Source: an uncultured Actinomycetes bacterium
GTDB taxonomy: Bacteria > Actinomycetota > Thermoleophilia > Gaiellales > Gaiellaceae
DNA length: 64,000 nucleotides
Assembly: GCA_963766725.1 (NCBI GenBank)
Contig: CAVYBK010000001.1
Location: 87,822-151,821 of the forward strand
Direction of reading: 5' to 3'
This document shows positions 2,655 to 44,565 of the stretch, piece after piece (the stretch's first letter is position 1; each line of letters begins with the position of its first letter). The translations under genes and the position numbers were made by a program. The notes under the pieces were generated by a model. The model was given only the letters and a program-made list of their open reading frames with translations. It searched no databases and had not been told where the DNA came from.

Positions 2655-3319
2655 GACAGCGGCTGGAGGCGGCCGGACGGCGGTTCGCCCGGCTCACCAC
2701 GCAGGTCGTCGTGGCGCGGCCGGTTCTCTGGCGGCTCTTTCGCAGGCCCATGCGCCGGCAGTTCGGCTCGCTGGCGTCGACCTGGGACGGGCGCATCGGG
2801 CCGGAGGGCCTCGTCCCGCTCGGCGCCGCCCTCGACCGGCTCGGCGAGCCTCCGCGCAAGGTGCTCGACCTCGGCACGGGAACGGGGAAGGCGGCGCGCG
2901 TCGTGGCGAAGCGGTTCCCGGACGCCGAGGTGGTCGGCGTCGACCTCGCGCCCGAGATGGTCGAGGAGGCGCAGCGCCTGCTTCCGTCCGAGCTCGCCGG
3001 GCGCGTCTCCTTCCAGGTCGCGGACGGGGCGAGCCTGCCCTTTGCGGACGGGTCGTTCGACCTCGTCGTCCTTCAGAACATGATCCCGTTCTTCGAGGAG
3101 CTCGGCCGGGTCACGGCGCCGGGCGGCCACGCCATCTTCGCGTTCTCGCGCGGGGCGGAGACGCCGATCTGGGTCCCGCCCGACAAGCTCCGCGCCCGCC
3201 TCGGCGAGGTCGGCTTCGAGGACGTCCAGGAGCTCGCAGCGGGAGCGGCGTCGCCGTCCTTGCCGCCCGGGCCGACCCCGTCTAGGATCCTGGGCCAAGC
3301 GACGTCCGCGGCACGGTAG
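2651..3319 (+). CDS. class I SAM-dependent methyltransferase
   Basis: Motif I VLDLGTGTGK, DLAPEMV, FDLVVLQNM. GTG at 2651 overlaps the upstream TGA (GTGA). Confidence 0.85.
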   Translation: MRQRLEAAGRRFARLTTQVVVARPVLWRLFRRPMRRQFGSLASTWDGRIGPEGLVPLGAALDRLGEPPRKVLDLGTGTGKAARVVAKRFPDAEVVGVDLAPEMVEEAQRLLPSELAGRVSFQVADGASLPFADGSFDLVVLQNMIPFFEELGRVTAPGGHAIFAFSRGAETPIWVPPDKLRARLGEVGFEDVQELAAGAASPSLPPGPTPSRILGQATSAAR

Positions 3320-3367: not shown

Positions 3368-3440
3368 TGGCGAGGGCCGGAATCGAACCGGCGACACCAC
3401 GGTTTTCAGCCGTGTGCTCTACCAACTGAGCTACCTCGCC
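3368..3440 (-). tRNA. tRNA-Phe (anticodon GAA)
   Basis: Minus strand reads GGCGAGG TA GCTC AGTTGGTA GAGC A CACGG CTGAAAA CCGTG GTGTC GCCGG TTCGATT CCGGC CCTCGCC A. This is a full cloverleaf of 73 nt; CCA is not encoded. Confidence 0.9.
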
Positions 3441-36274: not shown

Positions 36275-36579
36275 CCGCGCAACGTGGTGAGCTTGTCGAC
36301 GTCGAGCTCGACGTGCCGCCGCGAGACCGCGACGATGAGGCCGAGCCCGACGACCGCCTCCGCCGCGGCGACGACCATCACGGTCAGCGCGAAGATCTGG
36401 CCGGTGCCGGTCCCGGTCTGGCGCGCGAAGGCGATCAGGGCGAGATTCCCCGCGTTCAGCATGATCTCGAGCGCGAGGAGGACGATCAGCGGGCTGCGGC
36501 GGATGAGCACGCCGAAGGCGCCGGTGGCGAAGAGGATCACCGAGAGGATCAGGTAGGCAGCGACGCCGGGCCCGGGCAC
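36271..36579 (-). CDS. nuoK: NADH-quinone oxidoreductase subunit K
   Basis: 102 aa, 3 TM helices, LALEIMLNA..L motif. Confidence 0.95.
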   Translation of the reverse strand: MPGPGVAAYLILSVILFATGAFGVLIRRSPLIVLLALEIMLNAGNLALIAFARQTGTGTGQIFALTVMVVAAAEAVVGLGLIVAVSRRHVELDVDKLTTLRG

Positions 36580-37110
36580 TTAGGAGCGGCTTTCTCTGGG
36601 GACGGCGCTGCCGAGGATGACTCCGCCGACGGCTGCGACGAGGAGCACGATGGAGGTCACCTCGAACGCGAGCAGGTGGTCGCCGAGGAAGAGCCGGCCG
36701 ATCTCCGCCGGCGTGCCGAAGCTGTCTTCGATCTGGGCGGGAGACGAGAGCTGGTCGCCCGCCTTCAGGGCGATGACGACCACGATCTCCACCGCGATCG
36801 CCGCCGCGGCCACGATCGCGGCGAGGGACTGTGGGCTTGGCTTGCCCGCCCAGGGCGCATCCGCCCTTCCGCCGAGGTAGGCGATGACGAAGAGGAACAT
36901 CACGACGACGGCGCCGGCGTAGACGAGCACTTGCGCGGCGGCGACGAACTCGGCGGCGAGGAGCAGGTAGAGCACCGCGAGCGAGGCGAGGTTCCCGATC
37001 AGCGCGAGGGCGCTGTAGAAGGGATTCTGGAAGAGGACGACCGCGATTCCCGAGCTGAGCAGCGCGAGCGCCGCCAGCACCCAGACGACCCAGACGATGA
37101 ATTCTTCCAT
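36580..37110 (-). CDS. nuoJ: NADH-quinone oxidoreductase subunit J
   Basis: NP.YSAL.L......A..Y..L.AEF.AA.Q..VY.GA. ATG at 37110. Confidence 0.9.
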   Translation of the reverse strand: MEEFIVWVVWVLAALALLSSGIAVVLFQNPFYSALALIGNLASLAVLYLLLAAEFVAAAQVLVYAGAVVVMFLFVIAYLGGRADAPWAGKPSPQSLAAIVAAAAIAVEIVVVIALKAGDQLSSPAQIEDSFGTPAEIGRLFLGDHLLAFEVTSIVLLVAAVGGVILGSAVPRESRS

Positions 37111-37169
37111 CAGTGTCCCTTCCAGTGATGCTGCCCCGAGAAGCAGGCGTGTATTGCTGGATGGGGCAC
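37110..37169 (-). repeat. palindromic intergenic element, copy 1 (57 nt plus stop), filling the nuoI-nuoJ junction
   Basis: Shares CCAGTGATGCTGCCCCG and AGGCGTGTATTGCTGGATGGGGCA (plus-strand spelling) with 43922-44011. 13-nt terminal inverted repeats, 11/13. Confidence 0.85.
37110..37169 (-). CDS. candidate 19-codon micro-[22 protein letters not shown] (translation unproven)
   Basis: The GTG shares its G with the nuoI TAG, and the TGA shares its A with the nuoJ ATG. A paralogous ORF lies at 43922-44011. Confidence 0.35.
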   Translation of the reverse strand: MPHPAIHACFSGQHHWKGH

Positions 37170-37666
37170 TAAGAGTCCGACCTCCAGACAGGGATCGGCG
37201 TGTCGTAGAGCTCGCGGTCGGCAACGGGCACGCGCTTGACCGGCGGGGCGAGCAGCATGTCCTTCGTGTAGATGAGGTCGTCGCGCGAGTACTCGGAGAG
37301 CTCGTACTCGGCCTCGAGCGTGATCGCGTCGAACGGGCACGCGAGCTCGCAGTAGCCGCAGAAGATGCAGCGCGAGAGGTTGATCTCGTAGATGCGCGCG
37401 TAGCGCTCGCCCGGCGAGACGCGGTTGTCCGCGGTGTTCTCGTCGGCGACGACCCGGATGCAATCGGCCGGGCAGGCCGCCGCGCAGAGCGAGCAGCCCA
37501 CGCACTTCTCGAGCCCGTTCTCGTGGCGCCAGAGGCGGTGCCGTCCGCGGAAGCGCGGGTACACCGGGCGCTTGTACTCCGGGTACTGCTGCGTGATCGG
37601 CTTCTTGAAGATCTGCCGGAACGTGACTGCGAATCCCTTGAGGCTGTCGAAGGGCTGCGGGCTCAT
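37169..37666 (-). CDS. nuoI: NADH-quinone oxidoreductase subunit I
   Basis: Two 4Fe-4S motifs, [12 protein letters not shown] and [12 protein letters not shown]. Confidence 0.95.
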
Positions 37667-38658: not shown

Positions 38659-40824
38659 CAGCCCGCCTTCACCTCGACGCGGTCGTGCAGGCCCTCCGCG
38701 TGCTCGGACGGAATGCGGACGACCCCTTTGCGCAGGCGGCGGCTCACCCGGGCCCGGAGGGAGCGGCTCGTGCCGTTCGAGGAGACCGTCACCGTCGAGC
38801 CTGCGGCGATCCCGCGGGCCGACGCGTCTTCGTAGGAGAGCTCGACCTCGTCGGCCGGGCGCTGGAACTGGAGCTGCTGGACGCGCTCGACCGCCGGCCC
38901 GCTGAACAGGGACCGGTAGCGCACGAGCGCGAGGCCCTGCCCACGTTTCGGGGCGGCTGCTTTAGGCGCCGCCACGGCTGCGTCCGGTTCCTCCACCTCC
39001 GGCAGCGCGGCGTGGTCGTCGGGCAGCATCGTGGGCCAGGGGTCGACCTCGACGCCGAAGCGGCGGGCGAGCCCGGCGAAGAAGGCCAGCTCGTCCTCGG
39101 CGGGAGGCGCGACCGCGCGCCGCTGGCGCTGCGGCCGGCCCTCGAGGTTCACGGTGGTCCCATCGCGCTCGAGGTAGCTCGTGCCCGGGAGGACCAGATG
39201 CGACCAGAGCGTTCCCTCCGACTCGAACATCGCCGTCGTGATCACGAACCTCGCGCGCTCCGCGAGGTCGCGGACGTCCGGGTTTCCGGCGGCCTCGTCG
39301 CCGGAGACGATGAGCGCGCCGATCTCGTCTTCGGGGACGGTTCCGGGGTCGCCCCAGGCGGCCGCGACGCCACGTCCGTTCGGCGTGCGCGGGATGAGGT
39401 AGACGGACGCCTTGTCGCCGAGGCTCTCCGCCAGGGCGAGCGCGTGCGCTCCGCCCGTGGGATCGTCCTCCGACCAGACGATCGCGACGCGCCCTGCCTC
39501 GTCGAGGCTGCGCTTCGCGTCGCGGAGCTCCTCGACAGGGCTTTCGGCCTGCAGCTGGGCGGCCGCCCAGGCGGCGCTTCCGGGCTGAAGTGCGGCGGAG
39601 CCCGCCGGGTTCAGGGTGATGACCTCGGCGCCCGCGCGGCGGGCTGCGCGGAGCCAGAGGTCGAGAACCGGGGCTCGCTCGACGACCGGCTCGTCCCCGA
39701 AGACGAGGCAGACATCCGCATCGCGAATCGCCGAGATCGGCGCGCGGAAGCGGTCGAGGGCGGGATGGAAAGTGTCCGGGAGCAGTGCGCTGCCTCCTCC
39801 GAGCCCTTCCTTCGACGAGCCGCGCGATCGCGGTCGCGGTCTCCACGGTCTCGCCTCCCGAGAAGGCGACGACCACCGGGCCGCCGGCCTCCTGCAGGCC
39901 GCGCTCGGCCTCGTCCAGAGCCTGCTCCCACGAGACCGGCTCGAAGCCCCGTCGGCGCACCCGGCGCCGCGGGACCGAGATCCGGTCGTCGGCCCTCAAG
40001 TGTCCGTAGGCGAAGCGGCCCTTGTCGCACAGCCACCCTTCGTCCACCTCGGCGTGGTTTCTGGAGAGGATCCGCGCCACCTTGCCCTCGCGCGTCGTCG
40101 CCCAGGTGTTGCACCCGACCGGGCAGAGGCCGCAGACCGTGGGGACGTTCTGGATCTCCCAGGGGCGGGCGCGGAACCGGTAGGTCGTCGAGGTGAGCGC
40201 GCCGACCGGGCAGAGCTCGAGGACGTTGCCGGAGAAGTGCGCCCGATAGGGCTCGTCTTCGAAGGTGGCGATGACGGAGCCCGCGCCGCGGTTGATCGCC
40301 ACGAGCTGCCCGTCCTCGGCGACGGTCTCGGAGAAGCGGGTGCAGCGGTAGCAGAGGATGCAGCGCTCGCGGTCGAGCGCAATCAGCGGCGAGACCGGGA
40401 TCGGCTTGTCGAAGGTCCGCTTTTCGAAGCGCATGCGGGTCGCGCCCGGCCCCCAGCGGAACGTGAGGTCCTGGAGCGGGCACTCGCCGCCCTTGTCGCA
40501 GTCCGGGCAGTCGAGCGGGTGGTTCAGGAGGATGAACTCGAGGACGGCGTTCTGGCCCTCCGCGGCCTTCGCGCTCGTCTGCGCGGTCGAGAGGACGAGG
40601 CCGTCCTGGGCGGTCATCGTGCAGGCTGCCTGGAGCTTCGGCATGCCCTCGACTTCGCAGAGGCACATGCGGCAGGCGCCGACCGGCGCGCCGAGCCTCG
40701 GCTCGTAGCAGAAGACCGGTATCTCGATCCCGGCCTCGAGCGCGGTCTCGATCATCCCCTGGCCCTTGGGGACCTGAATCTCGCGGCCGTCGACGGTGAC
40801 CGTGACGAGCTCGGGGCTGCTCAC
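38658..40824 (-). pseudogene. nuoG: NADH-quinone oxidoreductase subunit G, one apparent 1-nt insertion near 39810
   Basis: 2Fe-2S and 4Fe-4S cysteine motifs in the N-terminal frame (CYEPRLGAPVGACRMCLCEV, HPLDCPDCDKGGECPLQ, CILCYRCTRF). After ...AIARLVE the homology continues in another frame (EGLGGGSALLPDTF... to ...DRVEVKAG*). Length is 2167 nt, i.e. 3n+1. Confidence 0.85.
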
Positions 40825-42188
40825 GCCGGCACCTCGATCTCCGCGCGGATGCGCGCGTGGTGCTGGTCGACCGGCGCCATGACGTGGTCGAGCGTGGAGT
40901 CGCCGTGGAACGGGCACCCGCCCTCGTCGATGTGGCGCTGGTACTCGTCGCGGAACTTGGCGACGTAGCTCGCCACCGGCATCGCGGCCGCGTCGCCGAG
41001 CGGGCACAGGCAGTTGCCGAGGATCCGGTCGCAGACGTTCAGGAGGAGATCGAGCTCTCCCTGGGAAGCCTCGCCGTCCTCGATCTTCCGGAGGATCGAG
41101 ACCATCCAGCGCGTCCCCTCGCGGCAGGGCGTGCACTTCCCGCACGACTCGTGCATGTAGAACTGGGCGACCCGCAGGCCGAGCTGCACCATGCAGCAGC
41201 GCTCGTCCATCACGATGACCGCGCCGGAGCCGAGCATCGTCCCCCGCGCCGCCATGGAGTCGAAGTCGAGCGCCGTATCGACTTCGTCGGCGGTGAGAAC
41301 CGGCACCGACGAGCCGCCCGGGATGATCGCCTTGAGCTCGTGCCCGTCCGGGATCCCGCCGCCGATGTCGTAGATCAGCTCGCGCAGGCTCGTGCCCAGC
41401 TCGACCTCGTAGTTGCCGCCGTTGATCACGTTCCCGGAGAGCGAGAAGAGACGCGTGCCGCGGGAGTTCTCGACACCGAGCTTCGCGTAGTTCTCCCCGC
41501 CGAGCTCGAGGATCTTCGGGACGGTCGCGAGCGTCTCGACGTTGTTGATGAGCGTCGGCGAGGCGTAGACGCCGGAGATGGCCGGGAAGGGCGGCTTCGA
41601 GCGCGGCTGCCCGCGCTTGCCCTCGAGCGACTCGAGAAGGCCGGTCTCCTCGCCGCAGATGTACGCACCGGCCCCGCGGTGGACGACAACCGTGAGGTTC
41701 CAGCCCGAGCCGAGGACGTTCGCTCCTACGAGACCCGCCCTGCGGGCCTCCTCGAGCGCGTCGCGCAGAATCTCGAACTCCGCGAGGTACTCCCCGCGAA
41801 TGTAGATGAAGGCCGTGTTCGCCCCGATCACGCGCGAGGCGATCACGCAGCCCTCGATGAACATGTGCGGGAGCCGGGCGAGGATCTCGCGGTCCTTGAA
41901 GGTGCCGGGCTCCGACTCGTCGGCGTTCGCGACGAGGTAGATCGGCTTCGTCGTCTGGTCCGGCTTGGGCAGGAAGCTCGCCTTGCGACCCATGGGAAAG
42001 CCCGCCCCGCCGCGGCCGCGCACGTCCGCCGCGAGCAGCTCGTCGAGGACGGCCTGGGGCTCCATCTTCATGGCTTTCTTGAGCGACTCGTAGCCGCCGA
42101 CCTTCTCGTACTCGGCGAGGCGCGTGAGATCGCGCCCCTCCGCGTCCGCGAGGAGAAGCTTCTTCAGCGCCTTCTCACTCGGAGCCAT
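40821..42188 (-). CDS. nuoF: NADH-quinone oxidoreductase subunit F
   Basis: GRGGAGFP, FMN/NADH site, ESCG.C.PCREG 4Fe-4S motif. Confidence 0.95.
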   Translation of the reverse strand: MAPSEKALKKLLLADAEGRDLTRLAEYEKVGGYESLKKAMKMEPQAVLDELLAADVRGRGGAGFPMGRKASFLPKPDQTTKPIYLVANADESEPGTFKDREILARLPHMFIEGCVIASRVIGANTAFIYIRGEYLAEFEILRDALEEARRAGLVGANVLGSGWNLTVVVHRGAGAYICGEETGLLESLEGKRGQPRSKPPFPAISGVYASPTLINNVETLATVPKILELGGENYAKLGVENSRGTRLFSLSGNVINGGNYEVELGTSLRELIYDIGGGIPDGHELKAIIPGGSSVPVLTADEVDTALDFDSMAARGTMLGSGAVIVMDERCCMVQLGLRVAQFYMHESCGKCTPCREGTRWMVSILRKIEDGEASQGELDLLLNVCDRILGNCLCPLGDAAAMPVASYVAKFRDEYQRHIDEGGCPFHGDSTLDHVMAPVDQHHARIRAEIEVPA

Positions 42189-42651: not shown

Positions 42652-43922
42652 TAGCGGTCGCAGTCGCCCATGACCGTGTCGAGGGAGCCGAGGATTGCGA
42701 TGAGATCGGCCACGAGCGAGCCCGCGACGGTCGTAGCCGTCGCCTCGAGGGCGACGAAGGAGGGGGCGCGGAACTTCACGCGCCAGGGCTTCGATCCGCC
42801 GTCGGAGACGACGTAGCACCCGAGCTCGCCGCGTGCGGACTCGACGGCCACGTACACCTCGCCCGCGGGCACGCGGTAGCCCTCGGTCACGAGCTTGAAG
42901 TGGTGGATGAGGCTCTCCATGGACGTATGCAGCTCGTGGCGAGGAGGCAGGACGATCTTGCGGTCGTCCACGGTCCACGGTCCCTCGGGCATGCCGTCGA
43001 GGCATTGCTGGACGATGCGCGTCGACTCGCGCATCTCGTCCATGCGCACCTTGTAGCGGTCGTAGACGTCTCCGTTGGAATAGACCGGCACGTGGAAGTC
43101 GACCTGGTCGTAGGCGAGGTAGGGCTGCGCCTTGCGCAGGTCCCAGTCGACTCCCGATGCGCGCAGGACCGGGCCGGACTGGCCGAGCGCAATCGCGTCC
43201 TCCGCGGAGAGCAGGCCGATGCCCTTCGTCCGCTCGAGCCAGATCGCCTGCCGGTCGAGGAGCGCCTCGTACTCGTCGACGCGGCCCGGGAAGATGTCCG
43301 CGAACTTGCGGCACTCCGTGAAGAAGCCGGGCGGGATGTCCTCGGCGAGCCCGCCGGCCTGGAAGTAGCGCGTGTGCATGCGGACGCCGGTGACGAGCTC
43401 GAAGAGGTCGAGCACGGCGTCGCGCTCGCGGAAGCAGTACCAGAGGAGCGAGATCGCCCCGAGCTCGAGCGCGCCCGTGCCGAGCCAGATGAGGTGCGAG
43501 TGGATGCGCGAGAGCTCGGAGAGGAGCGTGCGCATCCAGGTCGCCTTCGGCGGCGGCTCGACCCCGAGGAGCTTCTCGATCGCGAGGACGAAGGCGAGCT
43601 CGTTGATCTGGAACGAGAGGTAGTCGATCCGCTCCGGGTACGTGATCGCCTTCCACCAGGTCTTCTGCTCCATGTTCTTCTCGAAGCCCGTGTGGAGGTA
43701 GCCGATGACGGCCTCGACGCCCTCGACCCGTTCGCCGTTCAGCTCCACGATGAGGCGGAGGACGCCGTGTGTGGAGGGATGGTTCGGCCCGAAGTTGACC
43801 TCGAGGATGTCGCCTTCCTCGCGAAGAGCCGGGTCGACCTGCAGGACCGACGGGATCGGGCTCGGGATCCTGGTGCCGGTGTAGATCGGCGCCTTCCCGC
43901 GCGCAGCCGTAGTCGTCGCCAT
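42651..43922 (-). CDS. nuoD: NADH-quinone oxidoreductase subunit D
   Basis: NFGP.HPS.HGVLR, ERIDYLS, and a C-terminal RAPSF......GS.DTVMG.CDR. ATG at 43922 (the track starts one codon earlier at a TTG). Confidence 0.95.
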   Translation of the reverse strand: MATTTAARGKAPIYTGTRIPSPIPSVLQVDPALREEGDILEVNFGPNHPSTHGVLRLIVELNGERVEGVEAVIGYLHTGFEKNMEQKTWWKAITYPERIDYLSFQINELAFVLAIEKLLGVEPPPKATWMRTLLSELSRIHSHLIWLGTGALELGAISLLWYCFRERDAVLDLFELVTGVRMHTRYFQAGGLAEDIPPGFFTECRKFADIFPGRVDEYEALLDRQAIWLERTKGIGLLSAEDAIALGQSGPVLRASGVDWDLRKAQPYLAYDQVDFHVPVYSNGDVYDRYKVRMDEMRESTRIVQQCLDGMPEGPWTVDDRKIVLPPRHELHTSMESLIHHFKLVTEGYRVPAGEVYVAVESARGELGCYVVSDGGSKPWRVKFRAPSFVALEATATTVAGSLVADLIAILGSLDTVMGDCDR

Positions 43923-44011
43923 CAATGCCCCGTCCAGTGATGCTGCCCCGCTTCTCGGTTGCGCAGTGTGATCGCGAGCGAGAAGTAGGCGTGTATTGCT
44001 GGATGGGGCAT
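43922..44011 (-). repeat. palindromic intergenic element, copy 2 (87 nt plus stop), filling the nuoC-nuoD junction
   Basis: Same element as 37110-37169 with a 30-nt internal insertion forming a nested CTTCTCG/CGAGAAG stem. Terminal inverted repeats ATGCCCCATCCAG / CTGGACGGGGCAT, 12/13. Confidence 0.85.
43922..44011 (-). CDS. candidate 29-codon micro-[32 protein letters not shown] (translation unproven)
   Basis: The ATG shares its A with the nuoC TAA, and the TGA shares its A with the nuoD ATG. The frame is conserved with copy 1 despite the 30-nt indel. Confidence 0.35.
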   Translation of the reverse strand: MPHPAIHAYFSLAITLRNREAGQHHWTGH

Positions 44012-44565
44012 TACTCGGCTCCCGAGAATCGCACCGGCTCGCCGCCGATCGGGTAGTCCTTGCGGAGGGGGTGCCCCTGCCAGTCGTCGTCCATGAGGAT
44101 CCGCTTCAGGTTCGGGTGGCCCTCGAACTCGATCCCCATGAGGTCGTACGCCTCGCGCTCGTGCCAGTCGGCGGTCGGCCAGACGGAGACCACGCTCGGA
44201 ACCGACTCTCCTTCGTCGCACCAGACCTGGAGCCGGACGCGCGGCGCCCCGCGGGCGCCGGAGACGACTGCGACGAGGTGATACGAGACCGAGAAGCGCT
44301 TCGCTTTCGGCTCGGGCTTCTTCGCGAGGCCCCAGGAGCCGGGCCGGTTGATGTCGCGCCCGCCGCGATGTCCCCAGTAGCCGGCCACGGTGCGCTCGTT
44401 CCAGCCGAGGTAGTCGGCAGCAGCGATGTCGGCGAGGAAGTTGAAGCCGCACTCGTCGCGCAGGTACTCAGATGCCTCGCGAAGCTGCGCCGTCTCGACG
44501 ACCACGGTCGTCTCGCCGCGTTCCTCGGTCACCGCTGCGAACCCCGGGACGTCGGCGAAGTTCAC
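44011..44565 (-). CDS. nuoC: NADH-quinone oxidoreductase subunit C
   Basis: [16 protein letters not shown]...R.L motif. GTG overlaps the nuoB TGA. Confidence 0.9.

Follow-up and report, generated by a model that had tools for sequence, protein, structure and literature searches.

Gene-junction elements in a Gaiellaceae nuo operon are decayed copies of a palindromic MITE with an open frame that may relay translation

Introduction

How can a palindromic repeat that folds into a strong hairpin persist between the genes of an operon in which neighbouring genes otherwise overlap or nearly touch? The question arises in a 64,000-nt stretch of an uncultured Gaiellaceae bacterium (contig CAVYBK010000001.1 of assembly GCA_963766725.1, forward-strand positions 87,822 to 151,821; hereafter the window), where the nuoI-nuoJ and nuoC-nuoD junctions are each filled by a short palindromic element carrying an open reading frame (ORF) that overlaps the genes on either side. 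A preliminary description of this DNA had taken the fillers for insertions of a hairpin resembling MITEs (miniature transposable elements with inverted repeats) or repetitive extragenic palindromes (REPs), and had offered three roles: a relay ORF that keeps translational coupling across the insertion, a His/Cys-rich or metal-binding micropeptide, or an mRNA processing or stability hairpin whose ORF is incidental. Both junction elements arose by decay and internal deletion from copies of a non-autonomous MITE specific to Gaiellaceae/Thermoleophilia but not to nuo; the insertion proposal is thus borne out by family copies, by TA flanks and by sites filled in some genomes and empty in others. Among the three roles, the family-wide data favour the relay, which is the best-supported reading: the ORF probably lets ribosomes pass from gene to gene, leaving the element harmless inside essential operons.

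Results

The two junction elements of the nuo operon

Both elements lie on the minus strand, between genes whose products were confirmed as NuoI, NuoJ, NuoC and NuoD with NCBIfam. The nuoI/nuoJ copy (57 nt, 37113..37169, GTG...CAC) follows nuoI, which ends TCT TAG; this TAG (37169..37171) consists of a flanking TA, one copy of the target site, plus the first G of the element, and it overlaps the GTG of the element as TAGTG. From that GTG (37169-37167) the relay ORF (37110..37169) reads GTG CCC CAT ... GGA CAC TGA, open for 19 codons and with a length that is a multiple of three (3n), down to a TGA at 37112-37110 whose A (37110) is also the A of the nuoJ ATG (37110-37108). In the resulting TGATG (37108..37112), what was the 3' TA of the target duplication is now TG. 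The terminal 13-mers, GTGCCCCATCCAG and CTGGAAGGGACAC, are complementary at 11 of 13 positions. The nuoC/nuoD copy (87 nt, 43925..44011) has the same architecture with the derived termini ATG...CAT. The nuoC stop TAA (44011..44013) overlaps the relay ATG (44011-44009) as TAATG (44013-44009), and the second relay ORF (43922..44011, 29 codons) closes with a TGA (43924-43922) that forms TGATG (43920..43924) with the nuoD ATG at 43922-43920. A 24-mer and a 17-mer common to the two copies occur nowhere else in the window (0.00 and 0.20 expected from shuffles). The preliminary description had reported both elements, the overlaps and the terminal repeats, and we find them where it placed them. It was also right that the remaining junctions of the operon are tight, those that could be read having GTGA, ATGA or TAATG overlaps or 0-2 nt gaps. 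The nuoC/nuoD copy does not derive from the nuoI/nuoJ copy by a 30-nt insertion; both come from a 162-nt element by deletion, lacking 75 nt from the centre and a 105-nt internal stretch (CTTCTCG|GGGCAG), respectively.

The folding that it had proposed to look at proved better than that of shuffled sequences for both copies and on either strand, with z scores of -2.8 (57-nt copy) and -4.0 (87-nt copy) for the mRNA strand and -5.3 and -8.1 for the opposite strand. No terminator-like or promoter-like signal was found at either window copy, and Rfam gave no match at these positions with either gathering or permissive thresholds.

The element family

The full element is a nested hairpin of 162 nt (54 codons) running from GTGCCCCATCCAGCAATAC to GCATTACTGGAAGGGGCAC, i.e. 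GTGCCCC...GGGGCAC. A degenerate pattern matching either arm, run over a species-representative genome collection, gave at least 119 matching stretches, nearly all from Gaiellaceae, Gaiella, Thermoleophilia or unclassified Actinomycetota soil metagenome-assembled genomes (MAGs), with single MAGs carrying up to at least seven loci among the matches listed; all copy numbers given here are lower bounds. Some 10 matches outside Actinomycetota contained a single arm only and were set aside as chance matches. At least 108 copies, including the two in the window, could be delimited. They fall into 98 independent site clusters, and 86 are exactly 162 nt long, with terminal inverted repeats (GTGCCCC.TCCAG... 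/ ...CTGGA.GGGGCAC) that are near-invariant over these 86. The preliminary description had held that occurrence at many unrelated sites, in either orientation and with no preserved frame, would mark a plain REP or MITE. The many unrelated sites and both orientations are indeed what we find, and they identify a mobile repeat rather than a nuo feature; the orientation, however, is biased 3:1, and frame and stop are preserved, as detailed below.

The element belongs to the MITE class. At 162 nt it is below the usual limit of ~400 bp, it has no transposase gene, and its only ORF is without a Pfam domain. Hairpin pairing is preserved by covariation: 91.9% of cells are paired, and 32 of the 63 pairs show compensatory changes on both sides, across subfamilies. 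None of 500 shuffles reached these values, and slid controls paired in 34-42% of cells. A full-length copy compared with Rfam gave generic hairpin matches only (39.8 bits at most, against a threshold of 168), and blastn of a full copy against a plasmid collection gave none. We found no description of this family in the literature.

The 57-nt form, with the identical 105-nt deletion, occurs at four sites (nuoI/nuoJ in the window, nuoJ/nuoK in locus L067, and loci L085 and L121), and the deletion sits at the base of the internal stem. One of these short copies (L085:5982-6038) is orthologous to a full 162-nt copy (L058:4283-4444), which weakens the idea of a mobile 57-nt subfamily and suggests that the repeated deletion is structure-driven or spread by gene conversion, rather than the product of short-form transposition. 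A metagenome scan for the 57-nt deletion junction gave three matches, two of them at the window's own site in its own species and one at a new site, too few for a separate test of the short form. The nuoC/nuoD copy of the window is orthologous to a 225-nt copy at the same junction in L055 (L055:3964-4188), with which it has in common the ATG...CAT termini, unique to these two, that provide a better start codon than GTG...CAC and restore the closing base pair. NuoD is only 77% identical between the window genome and L055; the insertion at this junction is therefore old, and it was kept translatable while its interior went from 225 nt to 87 nt.

Several further observations concern the copies themselves. 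Where copies occupy the same junction in different genomes (43925-44011 of the window with L055:3964-4188; L099:1722-1883 with L112:2482-2643), they differ in subfamily core and more closely resemble other copies of their own genome, pointing to gene conversion between copies within a genome, or else to a hot spot that took up insertions independently more than once. The 225-nt subfamily (L005, L055, L072, L074 and L088) has a 63-nt insertion (...GAGACGGCCGCGCCGGCGAAGCCGGC...) in its 3' half, between the central stem and the 3' arm, and this insertion leaves the frame open in all five delimited 225-nt copies. At L001:6682-7007 two full copies stand in direct tandem with the middle TA in common (...CAC TAG TGG...), an arrangement that would chain two relay ORFs. 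L006:2014-2106 is a related yet distinct palindromic element of ~95 nt with similar termini (GTGCCCCTCCCAGCGATGGTCA...) and may represent a sister MITE family that uses the same transposase. Finally, a truncated copy in L045 (~3100-3300, minus strand) runs into a different small palindrome (GGACGGAGCACTGATGCTCCGTCC), which may be a nested insertion of another repeat.

Target site and mobility

The flanks of the 108 copies read TAG on the 5' side in 80 cases and CTA on the 3' side in 63, giving the pattern xTA|G...C|TAy in which the inner G and C are invariant. TA stood on both sides of 49 copies; in these the outer x was C in 31, T in 12 and G in 6, and the outer y was G in 35, A in 9, T in 3 and C in 2, so that CTAG stood on both sides of only 24. 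With outer bases that vary independently and an invariant inner G and C, the duplication is TA with a preference for CTAG, and a 4-bp CTAG duplication of the IS5-like kind is ruled out. IS630-family elements insert into TA with duplication (PMC2170065), and a preference of IS630 for CTAG is indicated there by the cited title of Tenzen & Ohtsubo (1991). This target site is our link to IS630, and it suggests mobilisation by an IS630/Tc1-mariner-type transposase. A search of all fetched loci for IS-sized pairs of termini and orphan arms returned only MITE-end combinations and chance matches, and no candidate transposase could be tied to the element.

Insertion is also evident from site comparisons: the nuoH/nuoI, nuoI/nuoJ, nuoJ/nuoK, nuoK/nuoL and nuoL/nuoM junctions each hold a copy in some genomes and none in others. 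At the empty orthologous sites the sequence is TAGTG or TGATG, and at nuoI/nuoJ in particular TGATGG or TAGTGG. In the fetched loci (69.4% GC), CTAG is depleted ~7-fold (335 observed versus ~2283 expected), and it is mainly at stop codons that CTAG/TA target sites remain in these genomes of 69% GC. Stop codons hold about 30% of the unoccupied CTAG sites, whereas 72% of element copies abut one, an excess that fits TA targeting followed by the loss of intragenic insertions.

Orientation, frame and stop at gene junctions

Insertion at the TA of a stop codon has several consequences. The upstream stop is rebuilt as TAG from the duplicated TA and the first G of the element, and the GTG of the element overlaps it; the resulting TAGTG is an ordinary site of termination and reinitiation in these genomes. 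Frame 1, with 54 codons and no stop, spans the element to its 3' end. There the TA, with the base that follows, yields a new stop where the old one had been, and in most cases this stop overlaps the start of the downstream gene, as TAGTG, TAATG or TGATG. In the mechanism that we propose, a ribosome ending nuoI or nuoC would restart on the relay ORF, melt the hairpin during translation, stop at the relay TGA and restart at the nuoJ or nuoD ATG, the peptide being a by-product. Comparison of the copies leads us to infer actual translation of the relay ORF and a benefit to the downstream gene.

Among the 99 copies whose gene context could be classified, 74 were in sense and 25 in antisense contexts. 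Of the 60 sense copies with a gene before them, 44 had an upstream stop formed by TA and the G of the element, with the mirror arrangement in 16 of 18 antisense copies, and a stop-start overlap was present at the 3' end in 40 of the 74 sense-context copies. Since such features are largely inherited from the founder, we looked for signs of continuing selection. One is orientation: the target is palindromic, so that a 1:1 ratio is expected, and copies on stop codons were nonetheless 60 sense to 18 antisense (P = 2e-6), or 56 to 16 with orthologues collapsed. Another is the frame. Length was 3n in 100 of the 108 copies, and frame 1 was open in 103, versus 77 for frame 2 and 81 for frame 3; 2 unique events had created a stop in frame 1, where mutational opportunity predicts 6.0 (P = 0.03). 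All insertion variants (177, 204, 225, 231 and 270 nt) were 3n and open.

The sharpest test of whether the relay stop is maintained is the fate of the 3' TA. In sense-context copies it was kept in 38, had become TG in 22 (21 of them TGATG) and was another dinucleotide in 9, whereas TG occurred in only 2 of 24, 2 of 69 and 2 of 24 cases at three control flanks. TG outnumbered the equally likely transition product CA by 22:2 (P = 3.6e-5), or 21:1 over independent sites (P = 1e-5). The relay-frame stop was kept at 40 of the 43 junctions that have an overlapping start; where the 3' TA had mutated and the overlapping start was retained, it was kept in 21 and lost in 3. If the relay ORF went untranslated, only the downstream start would be constrained, and not the stop. 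The nuo operons conform throughout: eight copies at six junctions (C/D twice, H/I, I/J, J/K, K/L twice and L/M) in five genomes are all in sense orientation, 3n, open and overlapped at both ends.

Much of this could be had without any ribosome using the ORF. The elements may be plain selfish MITE remnants whose ORF, frame and stops are incidental to high GC, a 162-nt founder and a CTAG target, the downstream genes initiating independently and perhaps helped in this by the 3' arm, which is rich in purines. Each of the three sense frames is open in a majority of copies, a stop at offset 0 follows automatically from the TA and G of a CTAG target, both orientations and non-3n lengths exist, and the 105-nt deletion has recurred in place. 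Pairing of the 3' arm, GGAAGGGGCAC, with the anti-Shine-Dalgarno sequence is worth ~-8.4 kcal/mol whatever the context, and this resemblance to a Shine-Dalgarno sequence is thus a family property rather than a sign of local selection, which we had considered and rejected. What the remnant explanation leaves unaccounted for is that TGATG arose 21 times, in sense-context copies only, while other dinucleotides are rare; that orientation is 60:18 at a palindromic target; that frame-1 stops fall short of mutational opportunity; and that the eight nuo copies have every relay feature. On balance we consider it unlikely, though it deserves to be taken seriously.

Several points weigh against our reading of the element as a MITE with a relay ORF. 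A founder of 3n length with GTG...CAC termini, landing in CTAG, yields much of the relay architecture automatically, and that length and those termini could be luck (prior roughly 0.1-0.2). Three sense tandem copies have a stop in frame 1, and lengths of 50, 80, 89 and 163 nt are present in sense contexts. A quarter of the classifiable copies (25/99) lie antisense to the genes beside them, so that frame 1 need not be translated as a relay; gene context itself was called by a heuristic based on GC content at third codon positions (GC3) and not by a trained gene finder. The hairpin of the mRNA strand is still very stable (~-94 kcal/mol in full copies). The identical 105-nt deletion is found at four sites, and one of these has a full-length copy as its orthologue, so that structure rather than selection may account for the 57-nt form being 3n long. 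Nor was a parent insertion sequence (IS) with matching termini found in the ~0.85 Mb of fetched loci.

The relay peptide

Could the micro-ORFs be real genes for a complex I peptide that is rich in His/Cys and serves as an accessory or binds metal? They are in frame and coupled at both ends, and the shorter one has 5 His in 19 residues; these His residues are the CAT/CAC codons of the terminal repeats. The same ORF, however, is found at ~100 unrelated loci, and copies at other nuo junctions of relatives yield very different peptides, of 19 to 75 aa. In the relay frame GC content is flat over the first, second and third codon positions (0.69/0.65/0.68, where host genes have 0.69/0.49/0.88), frames 2 and 3 have a synonymous fraction no lower than the 0.27 of frame 1, and column entropy does not differ between codon positions, i.e. 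there is no codon periodicity. A search with the 54-aa peptide among 5.8 billion proteins gave three short unannotated ones (46-83 aa) and no transposase fusion. The micropeptide proposed in the preliminary description is accordingly rejected, and we give it hardly any credence as a peptide of complex I.

Hairpin strength and strand asymmetry

The strand opposite the relay ORF folds better in all 108 copies, with means for the 162-nt copies of -116.6 versus -93.8 kcal/mol. Stop triplets (copies times stops) number 4/30/22 on the sense strand versus 60/92/120 on the antisense strand. The strand usually present in mRNA is the weaker-folding and stop-poor one.

This asymmetry bears on the remaining role put forward in the preliminary description, in which the hairpin is kept mainly as an RNA element of the nuo mRNA, a processing site or a barrier to 3' exonucleases that sets the stabilities of mRNA segments, the ORF being secondary. 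REP and Correia elements, which have been shown to act so, are the model, and Correia elements are cleaved by RNase within transcripts (PMC10969869). The strong covariation of the hairpin speaks for such a role, as do the better-than-shuffled folding of both window copies and the persistence of the nuoC/nuoD copy across lineages as diverged as their NuoD proteins. Yet it is the usual mRNA strand that is weaker in every copy, by a mean of ~23 kcal/mol at full length, with 85.5% of cells pairing versus 91.9% on the other strand; the window copies have lost most of the hairpin while retaining frame and both overlaps, and lack terminator-like and promoter-like signals. An additional role for the hairpin is possible and would be compatible with the relay, which it does not replace. 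As the principal explanation we regard it as improbable.

The asymmetry could alternatively mean that the plus strand, antisense to nuo, is the functional one, as a structured antisense RNA or a single-stranded DNA hairpin, e.g. a transposition intermediate or a regulator. Besides being the more stable in each copy, this strand has G.U pairs in 495 cells, versus 152 for the sense strand. Most of that difference is explained by four founder G.T positions, which supply 291 of the 495 cells and leave 204 versus 152. No promoter-like site was found at the window copies and no Rfam family matched, and the asymmetry equally fits selection for a weaker and stop-poor strand in mRNAs. We therefore think a functional antisense strand very improbable.

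Discussion

Comparison with known systems

The preliminary description stated that no such feature of a nuo operon had been described. This was too strong, because the closest precedent is found in the mycobacterial interspersed repetitive units (MIRUs), short repeats in mycobacterial operons with ORFs whose ends overlap the flanking genes (PMC3184786, in a passage citing Supply 1997). According to that passage and like our element, MIRUs are short dispersed repeats between genes of a polycistron, carry small ORFs that overlap the flanking stop and start, are co-transcribed, and appear from comparisons of filled and empty sites to have been inserted. The MIRUs of the same passage, though, are units of 40-100 bp, often in tandem arrays, found in Mycobacterium and with tetranucleotide direct repeats; the element described here is a single-copy nested hairpin of 162 nt with TA flanks, found in Gaiellaceae hosts and with one tandem pair in 108 copies. 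It works like a MIRU yet is not a member, being set apart by size, arrangement and host.

In its mode of insertion the element resembles the MITEs of the IS630/Tc1-mariner group such as the Correia elements of Neisseria, which are likewise small, without a transposase gene, with terminal inverted repeats, TA flanks and many copies, and which form a long hairpin in transcripts. The CTAG preference matches the one indicated for IS630 by the title cited in PMC2170065. Correia elements are known for promoters, integration host factor (IHF) sites and RNase III cleavage, but not for a relay ORF running from start to stop within their termini. The Rickettsia palindromic elements (RPEs) are also palindromic and mobile, keep a frame open and have their insertion tolerated by translated regions (PMC10969869). 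RPEs lie inside protein-coding genes and are translated within the host protein, whereas our element lies on stop codons and junctions with a separate ORF. It is not an RPE: 72% of its copies abut stop codons, and element plus duplication come to 164 nt, which is not 3n and would shift the frame of a host gene.

The MITE Chunjie, from Geobacter uraniireducens, likewise forms a very stable hairpin (~-98 to -130 kcal/mol, as given in PMC3184786). It differs in having 9-bp direct repeats, an A+T-rich sequence and 21-bp terminal repeats, and neither stop-codon targeting nor a relay frame is known to have been described for it. With REPs, their mosaic combinations (BIMEs) and the associated RAYT transposases, the element has in common that it is a dispersed extragenic palindrome in operons, able to affect mRNA stability; REPs, however, are 20-40 nt long with GTAG or CGTC heads and no target duplication, according to the relevant passage of PMC3733652, in contrast to the 162 nt and TA flanks seen here. 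The element is therefore not a REP either.

Implications of a possible relay

If the relay reading is right, this family would be a clear natural case of a mobile element whose ends encode signals for translational coupling: its start codon overlaps the stop of the host gene, its frame is open, and the stop that it regenerates overlaps the start that follows. A relay would explain how a very stable hairpin persists in essential, tightly coupled operons, and would provide, in nature, an uncomplicated setting in which to study termination-reinitiation across strong RNA structure. One may go further and suppose an evolved, translation-transparent transposon, in which the termini TA|GTG...CAC|TA, the 3n length, the stop-poor sense strand and the weakened sense hairpin would be adaptations, and in which the ORF would be translated and needed by the downstream gene. 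Such adaptations would let the element colonise stop codons and overlapping junctions of essential operons like nuo. The case for this extension, made from sequence features, is a respectable one, but we would sooner doubt than accept it.

Apart from mechanism, the family is a repeat that stands unannotated in hundreds of soil Gaiellaceae MAGs and is ignored by gene callers. Its ORFs are a warning against annotating such frames as micropeptides, and its insertion sites are usable as markers for strain or lineage typing, as MIRUs are in mycobacteria.

Other features of the window

The nuoJ/nuoK junction of the window may hold the trace of a third element. It reads TAA GTG CCC GGG CCC, with the nuoJ stop TAA followed by the GTGCCC that opens nuoK (36574..36582, minus strand). 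The close relative L067 has its 57-nt copy at this junction (TAAGTGCGCCATCC...CACTGATGGACGGGCCC), and a 59-nt deletion from a canonical copy would yield exactly the window sequence, TAAGTGCCCGGGCCC. We tentatively suggest that this is the footprint of a lost element, whose relay start may have been exapted, with GTG CCC now serving as the first two codons of nuoK.

In nuoG, one extra T is present at 39815 (minus strand, CGATCGCGCGGCTCG(T)CGAAGGAAGG) relative to L120, a metagenome contig from the window's own species whose nuoG is one ORF of 844 codons. The GC3 pattern in the window shows the true frame switching at 39815. Because of this 1-nt frameshift, the last ~280 codons of the apparent '727-aa' ORF at 38962..41145 are spurious, and so is the 303-nt gap seen between nuoG and nuoH; nuoG in truth ends at the nuoH start, 38658, with the overlap TGATG. 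The extra T may be an assembly error or a real frameshift allele. Elsewhere in the window, the sole Rfam match at the gathering threshold was a tRNA gene at 3368-3440 on the minus strand (75.2 bits).

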